Source of the DNA: a virus
Virus record (IMG/VR): IMGVR_UViG_3300024348_000017
Coordinates: 26,869 to 90,868 of that record
DNA: 64,000 nt
Strand: one strand, 5' to 3'
Shown one piece after another: positions 26,659 to 30,249 of the stretch. How positions within the stretch are numbered: the stretch's first letter is position 1; the number at the start of each line of letters is the position of its first letter. Position numbers and translations under genes: made by a program. The notes under the pieces are model-generated. The model was not told where the DNA came from and did not search any database. It saw only the letters and a list, made by a program, of their open reading frames with translations.

Positions 26659-27312
26659 TTATTTTTCTCCTAATAGTTTAGTGACTAATTTATCACAACC
26701 TTTCTTAATAGCGTTACTAAGACTTGTTTGATTGAATTTACCACCCTCATCTACTATAAGAGTCGACATAGAGATTTCAGATGATGATTCTTCAACTAAA
26801 ACCTCTTTTTCTTTGATACCATCTTTGTATAAAATACCTTTTAAACGAATTACAACTTCTTGTTCGTTTTTATGAAACACAGATACGTTCTTTTTTGTAG
26901 TTAGAACGTCTAGATAAACAATTTCAACACGTAATTTATTCTCAGCATCTGGGGATAAATCATATCCCTTTTCCTGAATATATTCTTCTAAAATATTTTT
27001 AACACCGAATTCTAAATTGCGGTTACCTGCTAATTTACCAATAACAACTTTATTAGTAACTTTCTCAACATAAATATGTTCAGATGCATTATACCAAATA
27101 TTACCTGGGCTATTTTTAAAAGTACCATCGAATCTCCATGAAAATTCATTGGCTAAATGTTGCATATATTCTTCTTTTCCAGAGAATTGAAGAACTACGA
27201 AGAAAATTTGTGTAATTAATGCAAGACCTATAAATAATCCTACACCTAATAAGAATAATTGAAATAATCGGTCGCGTAGACTGATGGCCAGACTGATAGC
27301 TTTTTGCTTCAT
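26659..27312 (-). CDS. membrane-anchored CsgG/TolB-N-like protein
   Basis: N-terminal TM; FGVKNILEEY helix; FNQTSLSNAIKK resembles FNQSTVSIATKK of the CsgG gene. Confidence 0.55.
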   Translation of the reverse strand: MKQKAISLAISLRDRLFQLFLLGVGLFIGLALITQIFFVVLQFSGKEEYMQHLANEFSWRFDGTFKNSPGNIWYNASEHIYVEKVTNKVVIGKLAGNRNLEFGVKNILEEYIQEKGYDLSPDAENKLRVEIVYLDVLTTKKNVSVFHKNEQEVVIRLKGILYKDGIKEKEVLVEESSSEISMSTLIVDEGGKFNQTSLSNAIKKGCDKLVTKLLGEK

Positions 27313-27347: not shown

Positions 27348-27377
27348 CAAAAGAAAGCAACCATTTCTGGTTGCTTC
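27348..27377 (-). terminator. terminator ending the tRNA/tmRNA transcript
   Basis: AAGCAACCA-GAAA-TGGTTGCTT followed by TCTTTT. Confidence 0.8.
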
Positions 27378-27429
27378 GTAAAAGGCCCACTCTGAGCGCC
27401 CTGATCGCGGGAAGGGGAATGGACTCTTG

Positions 27430-27800
27430 TGGAGATGACGAGAGTCGAACTCGTGTCTCAATAATGAACAATAATACCAACGTCTCACACGCTTAGCTCA
27501 CTGATTAACCCCAGTGCATGAGGTATAGGGCCACAAGTTTTTGGTCTTAGTGACATCCACCACCTAGTTTTAATCTAAACTAAGAAAATCTAGCTTGTAA
27601 CTTCTGTTCCTAGGATGTTACACCCGACGCTATTTAAGCCGCTAATGCGTACTCGTTCGCACCTACGAAAGACATCATATCTTCGAAGGTCATAGTAGAT
27701 AATTCTACAGTTATTGTTTCGCAAGGTTTTAAGGACTTATCTTACTTTGTCCGCGTGTGGTACTACCTTCAGATTACTGATCAAATACCGGTACATCCCC
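27430..27800 (-). ncRNA. ssrA: tmRNA
   Basis: GGGGAUG/CAUCUCC acceptor stem with G3-U70, T-arm ACGAG-UUCGACU-CUCGU, tag ORF ending YALAA at 27634-27708. Confidence 0.93.
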
Positions 27801-28100
27801 ATGTTTTTTTGACTTTTTGTCTAATATTTTCTTCACTTCAGCACATAACTCATATTCCTCAATTTTAATTAAGTCATCTAAGCAATTGCTTAATAGTTCA
27901 ATATACTGCGATTTTTCAATATTAAATATCATACCACTTGTATCCTTGAATGTGATATCAAATATATCAATGCCGTCTTTATTTCGTTTATATGCGCTAA
28001 GTACACATTTAACCATTTTAAGAATCAATTCACTGTCCCTTTCCTTCATCATTTGAAGGAACTCACGTTGATCCTTTAACATTAAACAGTGGCATGCCAT
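27774..28100 (-). CDS. protein with C-terminal UVR (UvrB/C) helical motif
   Basis: LIKIEEYELCAEVKKIL; start inferred from ATATTTAT 4 nt upstream. Confidence 0.55.
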   Translation of the reverse strand: MACHCLMLKDQREFLQMMKERDSELILKMVKCVLSAYKRNKDGIDIFDITFKDTSGMIFNIEKSQYIELLSNCLDDLIKIEEYELCAEVKKILDKKSKKHGDVPVFDQ

Positions 28101-28113
28101 AACGATAAATATT

Positions 28114-28223
28114 AAATACACTGTCTGTACTGTTAAACTGTCTCAATACTACCTTTATCCGTAGTAGAGGTGCTTTATTCATTCTTAGCGTCTGTTCAGT
28201 CCTCCTTTCGGAGCAGTGTATTT
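28114..28223 (-). ncRNA. putative structured RNA of unknown class
   Basis: perfect 10-bp closing helix, CUCC-GAAA-GGAG and UACUAC/GUAGUA hairpins. Confidence 0.55.
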
Positions 28224-28224
28224 G

Positions 28225-28310
28225 TGCCTCAGGCGAGAATCGAACTCGCACTCGCGTTGCGGCGAACAGGATTTTAAGTCCTGCGTGTCTACCAATTTCA
28301 CCACCAAGGC
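28225..28310 (-). tRNA. tRNA-Leu(UAA)
   Basis: class II cloverleaf, CAGGA-CUUAAAA-UCCUG. Confidence 0.95.
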
Positions 28311-28370
28311 ATGAGACCCGATATCCGCGTTTTCATCTCACTCGGGTCATGATGAGCTTCCGACGGTTTG

Positions 28371-28526
28371 CTGTAGGGGCTGGAATCGAACCAGCACGCT
28401 GCAATTCAATATAAGACAATTAAGCCGGCTTTGTGGTCAACCCATATCTTACATCTATCTCTTATCAGCACCCACGAGACGAGTGGGCACGTCTACCTTG
28501 ACTGCCGTCATTTCCGCCACCCTACA
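28371..28526 (-). ncRNA. aberrant tRNA-like RNA (GUC in anticodon position, enlarged D-loop and variable arm)
   Basis: acceptor UGUAGGG/CCCUACA, T-arm GCUGG-UUCGAUU-CCAGC, CCCAC-UCGUCUC-GUGGG arm. Confidence 0.75.
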
Positions 28527-28529
28527 GTA

Positions 28530-28763
28530 TTAAACCCATCTATTACCATTTCGGCGTTTAGCTTCTTCAGCTTCTTTAACTCCTTTAACCATTTTAATCC
28601 AGGTTAAAGATACGTCAACAGGAGCTAATACCCAAGCCATAACTAAAACCATTATAGCATCCATTTCTGGGGAGGTTCCGAAATCAATTCCTCTTGTTTT
28701 ATATTTTTTATTTAACTGATAGAAACAGTAAATAATACAAATAATGTAATAACCTAATAACAT
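28530..28763 (-). CDS. small membrane protein
   Basis: two hydrophobic segments; likely start MLLGYY. Confidence 0.5.
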   Translation of the reverse strand: MLLGYYIICIIYCFYQLNKKYKTRGIDFGTSPEMDAIMVLVMAWVLAPVDVSLTWIKMVKGVKEAEEAKRRNGNRWV

Positions 28764-28767
28764 ATAA

Positions 28768-28977
28768 CTATTTTTTAAAGTATTTTTCAAGTGCATCTAT
28801 CTTATCATCAGCATCAACTAACATTGTAAGTGCTTCTTCAGCATTACTATAGAAGTCTTTTGTTGAATGATCACCAATACCAACAGCGTGATTAGATAAT
28901 AAATCTAAACTTAATAATGCTTTTGATTTTTCAGCTATTGCTGATGCCATAAGCATGTCAAATAATTCTTTTTTCAT
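28768..28977 (-). CDS. conserved small phage protein (VGIGDH motif)
   Basis: 69 aa, AVGIGDHS motif. Confidence 0.6.
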   Translation of the reverse strand: MKKELFDMLMASAIAEKSKALLSLDLLSNHAVGIGDHSTKDFYSNAEEALTMLVDADDKIDALEKYFKK

Positions 28978-28990
28978 ATTTTTTATTTTG

Positions 28991-29075
28991 CGGAAAGACA
29001 GGGATTCGAACCCCAGAACCTGTTACAGTTGCCAGTTTTCAAGACTGGTGCATTCAACCACTCTGCCATCTTTCC
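28991..29075 (-). tRNA. tRNA-Ser(UGA)
   Basis: class II cloverleaf, CCAGU-CUUGAAA-ACUGG, G73. Confidence 0.95.
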
Positions 29076-29080
29076 AAGAG

Positions 29081-29178
29081 GATGAGGTTTAGCGGCCAAC
29101 TAAACAAAGTTACTACTTGCTCTCACCTCGAGTTACACGTGACAGTTACGGGTGAATAGGGTTTCGTCAACACTCATC
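29081..29178 (-). ncRNA. putative structured RNA between tRNA-Thr and tRNA-Ser
   Basis: GAUGAG/CUCAUC closing stem and internal hairpins. Confidence 0.35.
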
Positions 29179-29182
29179 TTTG

Positions 29183-29255
29183 ATCCAGAAATAAGAATCG
29201 AACTTACGACCTACTGATTACAAATCAGTTGCTCTACCTGCTGAGCTATTCTGGA
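29183..29255 (-). tRNA. tRNA-Thr(UGU)
   Basis: cloverleaf, ACUGA-UUUGUAA-UCAGU; U1-A72 first pair. Confidence 0.92.
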
Positions 29256-29259
29256 GTTT

Positions 29260-29344
29260 AGAGGATAGGCTCCGCGCCTCTACTAGGGGTTTCCTAATAG
29301 CGTAGACTTTCATGTTATTACCTTCGCATGCTCTCCTACCCTCT
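29260..29344 (-). ncRNA. putative structured RNA (three-way junction)
   Basis: 10-bp closing helix with a G-U pair only on the minus strand. Confidence 0.5.
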
Positions 29345-29353
29345 TTATATTTT

Positions 29354-29459
29354 TAGGAAAGTAGAAGATGGGTGCGTGGACATCTACTTTTACGATTGGC
29401 ATTTCTAACCGATTATATCCGCCCTTCCTACAGTTAAAGGATACGTCCCAATCAACCTA
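29354..29459 (-). ncRNA. putative structured RNA
   Basis: UAGG/CCUA, GAUUGG/CCAAUC and AAAGUAGA/UCUACUUU helices. Confidence 0.55.
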
Positions 29460-29466
29460 ATATCAT

Positions 29467-29537
29467 AACAACTACCTACAATTTTTTAAAGTCGCCTCCT
29501 CGTCATGCGATGGTTATACCTGCGGCAGGTAGTTATT
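29467..29537 (-). ncRNA. putative structured RNA
   Basis: 13-bp closing helix with two G-U pairs on the minus strand. Confidence 0.5.
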
Positions 29538-29542
29538 GTTTG

Positions 29543-29614
29543 TTGCGAGAGAAGGATTCGAACCTCCGACCCCTAGGTTATGAGCCTAGTGAGCTACCCC
29601 TGCTCTATCTCGCG
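29543..29614 (-). tRNA. tRNA-Met(CAU), initiator-like
   Basis: C1:A72 mismatch, CUAGG-CUCAUAA-CCUAG. Confidence 0.92.
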
Positions 29615-29619
29615 GTTTG

Positions 29620-29691
29620 TACTTCCAACGGGATTTGAACCCGTATTACTTCCGTGAAAGGGAAGTGACCTAACCCTTAGTCGATAGAAGC
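29620..29691 (-). tRNA. tRNA-Glu(UUC)
   Basis: cloverleaf, CUUCC-CUUUCAC-GGAAG. Confidence 0.93.
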
Positions 29692-29699
29692 AACTCTAG

Positions 29700-29930
29700 T
29701 TACTCAGCTTCTGGAGTTTCTACTGCTACAATTACTTCTGCAATTTTAGCTTCTGATGCTGATTTAACTTCAAATGCCTCTTCGTCGCGGCTCAATAAAT
29801 ATTGCACTGTGCGGGCTTCCGCCTCAGTTACTGATTGAGCGTCCACTAAGTAGTTTACTGTTTCTTTTTTTACTTTACCATTTTCGTTTTCAATTCTAAA
29901 TTGAACTTTTACGTTGAAATACTGTCCCAT
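29700..29930 (-). CDS. DUF4494 family protein
   Basis: FNVKVQF..ENGKVKKE..YLVDAQSVTEAEAR; real start MGQYF. Confidence 0.8.
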   Translation of the reverse strand: MGQYFNVKVQFRIENENGKVKKETVNYLVDAQSVTEAEARTVQYLLSRDEEAFEVKSASEAKIAEVIVAVETPEAE

Positions 29931-29937
29931 GTTTTTA

Positions 29938-30249
29938 TTAGTTTTGTTTTGTGTATACTGAATAATCGTAGATGTGAGCTCTATATTTGTATAGAACTTT
30001 TTGGAATTTACCACGATTTTTATATTCTTCAATAGATTCACCTTCTCTACGTGATGGGGCAATACCCATATAGTAGTCAATTACATCGTTGTTTAGCTTA
30101 ACTTCATTAGCAAAGAACATCATCTTAGCCATGTTTTGAGATCCAAATGGCTGGTAACCAGCTTTATACATTTGTTTTACTTCAGCTGGTAATTCAAAAC
30201 CAGCAAATTGGTTGTGTAAACCAACATATTGTTTTTTAGGTCCTCCCAT
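29938..30249 (-). CDS. hypothetical protein
   Basis: 103-aa ORF with promoter motif upstream. Confidence 0.6.
   Translation of the reverse strand: MGGPKKQYVGLHNQFAGFELPAEVKQMYKAGYQPFGSQNMAKMMFFANEVKLNNDVIDYYMGIAPSRREGESIEEYKNRGKFQKVLYKYRAHIYDYSVYTKQN

Follow-up and report, generated by a model that had tools for sequence, protein, structure and literature searches.

Clusters of transfer RNA (tRNA) genes in phages are usually viewed solely as a supply of tRNAs for codon usage or against host defence. In the cluster of phage T4, two RNAs that are not tRNAs are encoded on the tRNA strand, rnaC (species 1, 139 nt) and rnaD (species 2, 119 nt), which lie 6 and 1 nt, respectively, behind tRNA-Arg; to our knowledge, the function of these RNAs is still unknown. 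Spacer RNA freed by RNase P, RNase Z or RNase E can have a role of its own, as exemplified by the 3'ETS-leuZ sponge of Escherichia coli, and tRNA-punctuated release is known elsewhere, from the tRNA punctuation of mitochondria and from the tRNA-miRNA units of murine gammaherpesvirus 68 (MHV68). Other structured RNAs clustered with phage tRNAs, uncharacterised or protein-binding, are ROOL, GOLLD and the YrlA-type Y RNAs. In phages of Bacteroidota and Bacillota, theta ribozymes (minimal ribozymes of the hepatitis delta virus (HDV) type) are found at most ~5 nt from tRNA ends, and in gut phages a role in the formation of these ends has been proposed for them (PMC10879173). The locus described here is a tRNA array in a stretch of 64,000 nucleotides (the window), corresponding to positions 26,869 to 90,868 of the IMG/VR virus record IMGVR_UViG_3300024348_000017, a 90.9-kb uncultured viral contig, ~53% complete, on which every gene lies on the minus strand. 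The array occupies 27354-29691 on the minus strand of the window and comprises five tRNAs, a transfer-messenger RNA (tmRNA) and a terminator; its spacers hold six helix-closed units, here called A to F, and a long tRNA-like RNA, X. On comparative sequence grounds, A, B, E, F and X are separate, widespread and uncatalogued RNA families, and the spacer units are probably independent structured RNA genes, co-transcribed with the tRNA array and released from it.

Helix-Closed Units in the Spacers

A first-pass annotation of the window had described nearly every spacer between the tRNAs as a relatively GC-rich unit closed by a helix. All six units that it listed are present, on the minus strand, which is that of the tRNAs (Table 1; the extent of B is discussed below), and their content of guanine plus cytosine (GC) is 39-54%, compared with 33% for the window and 30-35% for the flanking open reading frames (ORFs). 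The terminal helices measure 10 bp in A, 4 bp at the ends originally given to B (which has a 7-bp inner stem), 6 bp in C, 10 bp in D, 4 bp in E and 13 bp in F. As had also been noticed, the G-U pairs work on the tRNA strand: the closing helix of D has one and that of F two, and when the opposite strand is read these helices shrink to 5 bp and 8 bp, respectively. What had been said of nearly every spacer is true of nearly every long gap, except that two gaps (27801-28113 and 28530-28989) are small ORFs and not RNA units; the gap at 28367-28526, missing from the original list, is occupied by the 160-nt tRNA-like RNA X.

Shuffled controls, by which equal stems would have counted against the units, gave a divided answer. 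Among the terminal helices, those of A, D and F exceed what chance provides (P <= 0.0005 in 2000 shuffles), but that of C is marginal (P = 0.04) and the 4-bp closures of B and E, taken alone, are not significant (P = 0.20-0.25). The z-scores for the folding of whole units are -3.85 for A, -3.5 for D, -2.2 for F, -1.8 for B, ~0 for C and +0.7 for E. Units E and B are rescued, and A and F confirmed, because of covariation in their relatives, as detailed in the following section.

Covariation in Related Arrays

Two flanking proteins were used to fetch 90 related loci from IMG/VR, in subsets of which the units recur in a mosaic-like manner (blastn), and IMG/VR was scanned with one conserved sequence pattern per unit. 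The pattern scans returned at least 120 stretches for X, at least 119 for E, 31 for A (~21 of them true members), 21 for F and 18 for B, the divergent members of B being added by nhmmer; in the window itself, profile searches found exactly one copy per family, all inside the array. Covariation was seen in A, B, E and F, so that the earlier description of the units as novel small RNAs stands for these four of the six listed, as well as for X; it is weakly supported for C, with a single compensatory pair, and for D, with a single relative.

In unit E, P1 is formed by 29459-29456 with 29357-29354, P2 by 29453-29448 with 29399-29394, and P3 by 29390-29381 with 29370-29358, the last having a bulge of 3 nt and a loop of 10 nt that is conserved (29380-29371); an inner hairpin (29444-29439 with 29420-29415) is variable. 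The alignment (A3) holds 71 non-redundant members of 77 to ~143 nt, in which a common 5' motif and a ~55-nt 3' module flank a variable middle domain. Over the 20 pairs of P1, P2 and P3, 97.4% of the 1420 cells are paired; compensation is found at 9 of these pairs, with 98 cells changed on both sides, and was matched by none of 500 shuffles. When the partners were slid by 1-3 columns, pairing fell to 37-54% and compensation came near zero, and in a blind mutual-information scan the helix pairs ranked top, all of them being 100% Watson-Crick or G-U. The covariation of E is genuine, because the 3' strand of P2 and the variable positions of P3 lie outside the search pattern. In the P3 loop, fixed flanks surround four free nucleotides, and the 3-nt bulge is invariant. 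A pseudoknot joining the loop of P3 to the sequence that follows P2 was considered and rejected, its 5' partner being unconserved and Watson-Crick covariation being absent from it. The commonest setting of E is with tRNA-Trp upstream (18 copies) and tRNA-Tyr downstream (29 copies), which may reflect either inheritance within a lineage or a functional link.

Unit A is closed by P1 (28223-28214 with 28123-28114), followed by the P2 hairpin (28213-28202) with a GAAA loop and by P3 (28200-28197 with 28132-28129), and has conserved single strands at 28196-28178 and 28128-28124. The same three-way junction is formed in 17 sequences (alignment A4), with a P1 of 8-10 bp, a P2 loop of GAAA type and a 4-bp P3; 97.4% of cells are paired and 10 of 16 pairs, in 39 cells, are compensatory, which none of 500 shuffles matched. 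Nearly invariant are the 19-nt strand inside P3 and the 5-nt junction between P3 and P1. Arrays that are otherwise syntenic differ precisely by the presence or absence of the 110 nt of this unit, and several relatives that are without it have an ORF directly behind tRNA-Leu. A contact between the GAAA tetraloop (28206-28209) and a receptor within 28178-28196 was rejected for the window, the receptor-like half not being kept in its subtype; a receptor-like motif pair is present in the conserved strand of most relatives.

Unit B had been listed as a 40-nt hairpin (28311-28350), which is part only of an element conserved over the entire 56-nt gap from X to tRNA-Leu; its extent is thus corrected to a ~56-nt pseudoknot at 28311-28366. 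This pseudoknot, of the H type, consists of helices 28366-28364 with 28327-28325, 28356-28352 with 28341-28337, and 28348-28342 with 28321-28315. Three diverged members were recovered by nhmmer, and in the resulting alignment (A8) all 240 of 240 cells of 15 pairs are paired, 5 pairs being compensatory across all three helices, with the reservation that the diverged members represent one lineage and that two of the pseudoknot helices rest on few independent events. The covariation score of B was reached by none of 500 shuffles.

In unit F the closing helix (29537-29525 with 29479-29467) encloses an invariant core of 21 nt (29515-29495). A closing helix of 8-14 bp occupies the same place in each of the 13 distinct members; its sequences are unrelated between lineages, and in 10 of the 13 it is beyond what shuffled flanks provide (P < 0.03).

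The tRNA-Like RNA X

X can be drawn as a class-II-like cloverleaf: the acceptor stem has 7 bp, the D stem an inserted hairpin and the variable arm ~77 nt, the T arm is canonical, and the anticodon-like arm shows GUC in a loop that is not canonical. In its alignment (A1) RNAalifold places 46 pairs, 21 of which are compensatory, and a covariance model (R1) matches ~98 of 100 pattern-fetched loci with 75-172 bits. Despite its acceptor stem and T arm, X has no match to the tRNA model of Rfam, and ARAGORN reports it only as an 'intron' tRNA with an anticodon that differs from relative to relative. At the anticodon position X carries GUC, and it has a discriminator G, G10 and mostly C38, residues by which tRNA-Asp is identified; many members lack U33, and a pyrimidine stands at position 37. 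Judged by these residues, X might be charged with aspartate yet decode poorly.

Further families of expanded tRNA-like RNAs may be represented by other long tRNA-like elements, of 110-160 nt, in relatives (L010:6135-6293, L004:1438-1553, L101:4534-4682 and L116:7679-7830), which are either 'intron' tRNAs of ARAGORN or weak matches to the X model (25-39 bits).

Units C and D

Unit C is a conserved spacer with a closing helix at 29178-29173 with 29086-29081. It occurs in 4 contigs only, with 82-100% identity across them and one compensatory pair, and an extra pattern scan returned just these same contigs; its structure is unproven. In unit D, a helix of 29344-29335 with 29269-29260 closes two inner hairpins; the folding z-score of -3.46 was reached by 0 of 200 shuffles and the terminal helix has P = 0.0005. 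A second pattern retrieved one further metagenome contig (L383), in which both changes in the closing helix keep the pairing through G-U, as is possible only on the tRNA strand; nhmmer gave no match over 378 loci, nor did an initial 20-mer pattern in metagenomes. That D is a structured RNA unit is probable. At the position of D, related arrays carry other helix-closed units, some of them shared (L022:2865-2997, L003:5514-5643, L014:2488-2645 and L127:1054-1255).

Borders and Exchange of the Units

In the relatives, the strand of A, B, E and F is invariably that of the tRNAs, and tRNA ends are usually a few bases away. Of 106 copies of E, 40 start 0-5 nt past a tRNA, and in 53 the distance from the end of the unit to the next tRNA is 4-7 nt. 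B follows X, tRNA-His or tRNA-Gln at 0-1 nt and leaves 1-5 nt to the tRNA behind it; 14 of 21 copies of A start no more than 5 nt from the 3' end of a tRNA, and 6 of 15 copies of F start 1 nt past one. The units are shuffled between related arrays, and one and the same family adjoins many different tRNAs.

The gaps between adjacent tRNAs are bimodal in length, with 695 of at most 15 nt (695 of the 1683 gaps among the fetched loci), 54 of 16-39 nt and 545 of 40-260 nt; at least 13 clusters of spacers with five or more distinct members were obtained from the same loci, both counts being biased by the way in which the loci were fetched. These clusters mean that further RNA families exist, many more than the ones described here.

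Organization of the Array and Host

The first gene of the array, tRNA-Glu, starts 8 nt past the stop codon of an upstream ORF (29700-30080); the order of the features that follow is that of Table 1.

Table 1: Features of the array in the window, in 5' to 3' order on the minus strand.
Feature	Position	Strand	Basis or remark
tRNA-Glu(UUC)	29619-29691	-	first gene of the array; ARAGORN; Rfam tRNA, 59.5 bits
tRNA-Met(CAU)	29542-29614	-	ARAGORN, Rfam
Unit F	29467-29537	-	13-bp closing helix, invariant core
Unit E	29354-29459	-	three-way junction, covariation
Unit D	29260-29344	-	10-bp closing helix, folding z-score
tRNA-Thr(UGU)	29182-29255	-	ARAGORN, Rfam
Unit C	29081-29178	-	conserved spacer, 6-bp closing helix
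tRNA-Ser(UGA)	28990-29075	-	ARAGORN, Rfam
Two small overlapping ORFs (69 and 88 aa)	28530-28977 (28530-28796, 28768-28977)	-	30% GC
Unit X, 160-nt tRNA-like RNA	28367-28526	-	covariation, covariance model
Unit B (redefined), ~56-nt pseudoknot	28311-28366	-	covariation
tRNA-Leu(UAA)	28224-28310	-	ARAGORN, Rfam
Unit A, 110-nt three-way junction	28114-28223	-	covariation
Small ORF (~108 aa) between unit A and tmRNA	27774-28100	-	31% GC
tmRNA	27427-27800	-	ARAGORN (tag ending ALAA); Rfam RF00023, 71.6 bits
Short helix behind tmRNA	~27385-27426	-	fold prediction, region 27354-27426
Intrinsic terminator	27354-27377	-	10-bp stem and U tract

The terminator at 27377-27354 is probably the end of the transcription unit; the terminator portion behind the tmRNA is kept in relatives, and a scan of the minus strand gave no credible terminator inside the array other than this site. 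A single long transcript of the array is plausible, because the genes are co-oriented, there is no internal terminator and one terminator follows the tmRNA, an arrangement that fits the polycistronic RNA proposed at first. In the search for promoters, a motif of the Bacteroidota type gave 2 matches in 3.1 kb, which is the chance level, with none upstream of tRNA-Glu, and matches to sigma-70-like promoters in the region were at or under the expectation from shuffles.

The three ORFs within the array have no match in Pfam; their DNA is conserved in relatives. For the tmRNA of the window ARAGORN gives a short tag, and for those of the close relatives L001, L005, L012 and L022 tags of ~24 residues are predicted.

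The host is probably a member of the Bacteroidota. Among the representative genomes of GTDB, the pattern of E occurs only in 4 short contigs of metagenome-assembled genomes (MAGs) of Bacteroidota; the pattern of A is found in none of 401 genomes sampled from the phylum of one such MAG, and no host counterpart of E or A was found in the genomes searched. By their distribution, the RNA families look phage-borne.

Proposed Mechanism and Alternative Explanations

The folds of A, B, E, F and X are very probably correct. In the mechanism proposed here, the whole array would be transcribed as a long precursor ending at the terminator behind the tmRNA, RNase P would cut the tRNA 5' ends and RNase Z, or an equivalent, the tRNA 3' ends, and these cuts would free the self-folded, helix-closed cassettes as discrete stable RNAs of ~55-160 nt. 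The release of the units by tRNA processing, as originally suggested, agrees with the geometry of the borders but does not suffice for F, E and D, which are not separable by tRNA enzymes alone because no tRNA lies between them; an extra cut would be needed in the AU-rich single-stranded linkers. On the strength of this geometry and of the analogy with T4, whose species 1 and 2 RNAs are excised by enzymes of tRNA processing, release by tRNA enzymes is moderately favoured. The freed RNAs may then act in trans, for example as a sponge or decoy that occupies a host factor which binds RNA or targets tRNAs: near-invariant loops and junctions beside freely drifting helices would point to a sequence-specific partner, be it a protein or some other macromolecule, hence to a role in trans, which as decoy or by protein binding is put forward tentatively.

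Several observations weigh against this reading of the units as RNA genes released from the array. The alignments derive from exact patterns, whereby fixed positions are uninformative and the sample is biased to close relatives; about half of the copies of E are without a called tRNA within 15 nt; and in the window no tRNA interrupts the block of F, E and D. For C, shuffled sequences fold just as well (z ~0), and the single relative of D is ~97% identical to it. Moreover, no target, partner protein or catalytic motif has been identified, and the role in trans is accordingly a guess.

The same border geometry would also suit a role in cis, in which the units would be folding insulators or processing helpers, preventing the mispairing of adjacent tRNAs and offering short single-stranded linkers to RNase P and RNase Z, or else a protection against exonucleases, becoming waste after cutting; indeed, they abut tRNA ends at regular distances (1-2 nt after one and 4-6 nt before the next), all are helix-closed, and B is a compact pseudoknot which exactly fills its gap. 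Such a role is nevertheless considered unlikely, given that gaps of at most 15 nt suffice for most tRNA pairs (695/1683), so that a large spacer is unneeded, that invariant loops and junctions combined with drifting helices are not required of an insulator, and that the same family adjoins many different tRNAs. The positions of the units, which start 0-5 nt after tRNAs as theta ribozymes may do (PMC10879173), together with their compact folds, their invariant unpaired nucleotides and the pseudoknot of B, could also be taken to mean that B, E, A or F are new self-cleaving, theta-like ribozymes trimming the trailers or leaders of tRNAs. This appears quite improbable: no ribozyme family of Rfam matches at E <= 10 with lax filters; the helices of E and B, threaded by hand, are incompatible with the order of the nested double pseudoknot of HDV (P1, P1.1, P2, P3 and P4, with the catalytic C in J4/2); and B, E and A do not fit hammerhead or pistol ribozymes when threaded in the same way, the junctions of A and E being without a hammerhead core.

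That the stems are due to chance, or belong to something other than RNA genes (tRNA pseudogenes, repeats of mobile elements, terminators or attenuators, small ORFs), could be argued from C, which has no energy signal and contains a -7 motif of the Bacteroidota type, though at chance frequency, and from the 4-bp end helices of B and E, which alone are at chance level. It is refuted for A, B, E, F and X by their compensatory changes, including those to G-U, and is on the whole highly improbable. Units A to F have no match to the tRNA model (RF00005) at E <= 10 and none in ARAGORN at default settings, which speaks against pseudogenes; miniature inverted-repeat mobile elements were rejected, since in F and A it is the interior that is conserved, the closing helices varying through changes that are compensatory or to G-U, and helix arms that vary around fixed cores are the reverse of what is seen in transposon end repeats. 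As to E being an intrinsic terminator or a leader attenuator, its U run is paired inside P3 and followed by a conserved tail that is not made of U, its loop is conserved, the unit ends 4-7 nt before a tRNA, and the variable domain, ranging from 0 to ~85 nt, leaves no conserved leader ORF or peptide.

Beyond the release of independent structured RNAs from the array, a bolder proposal, which for the moment must be regarded as speculative and rather unlikely, is that the array supplies the phage with several new classes of functional RNA, as a toolkit, one family or more forming a new class of self-cleaving ribozyme or a decoy that disarms defence; the target of such a decoy would be a host defence protein, either tRNA-targeting or RNA-binding, and the best candidates would be B, with its pseudoknot, and E, a three-way junction of great abundance. 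If this were true, the tRNA array would be a general launch pad for anti-host RNAs. With their small size (55-160 nt), the units are in any case candidates that can be tested as new ribozymes, protein-binding RNAs or decoys.

Comparison with Known RNAs

The comparison with Rfam that the first-pass annotation had recommended was carried out with Rfam 15: at gathering score only the tRNAs and the tmRNA are found in the array, and none of the units, and at E <= 10 with lax filters, over the whole region and two short sub-regions, there is nothing credible beyond them. The models of Rfam 15 for ribozymes, YrlA, ROOL and GOLLD gave no match at E <= 10. In GenBank phages, searched with blastn in a distant mode, X, E and A are without a match and the whole region matches via its tRNAs only. 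In the transcripts of the window, no complement of at least 12 nt was found to the conserved single-stranded parts of A, B, E, F and X; one chance match of 11 nt was seen.

The units usually lie within ~5 nt of a tRNA end, a position shared with theta ribozymes. The cellular and eukaryotic-virus cases of release mentioned above (3'ETS-leuZ, the mitochondrial tRNAs and MHV68) are single elements, sharing neither sequence nor fold with the families of the array; among the RNAs clustered with phage tRNAs, ROOL and GOLLD are much larger than the present units and YrlA is of different architecture.

The closest likeness is that to rnaC and rnaD of T4, since the units described here are likewise non-tRNA RNA genes that abut same-strand tRNAs in a phage tRNA cluster and hug their borders. 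The resemblance does not extend to the sequence: between rnaC or rnaD and units A-F, blastn gave only stretches of 7-13 nt at chance level (E 3.3-9.8), a better match of rnaC being that of its T arm to the tRNAs. In T4 there are two such RNAs, at the end of the cluster, whereas here at least five families alternate with the tRNAs and pass, like cassettes, between many phages. The kind, that is, small stable RNAs in a phage tRNA cluster, is known from T4; neither Rfam nor the literature searched describes these families, their number, their cassette-like exchange or how widely they have spread. With at least five RNA families in the long gaps, in tens to hundreds of uncultured phage contigs, the 50-year-old puzzle posed by the T4 species 1 and 2 RNAs grows beyond two orphan molecules and becomes one of a general, modular trait of tRNA arrays in phages.

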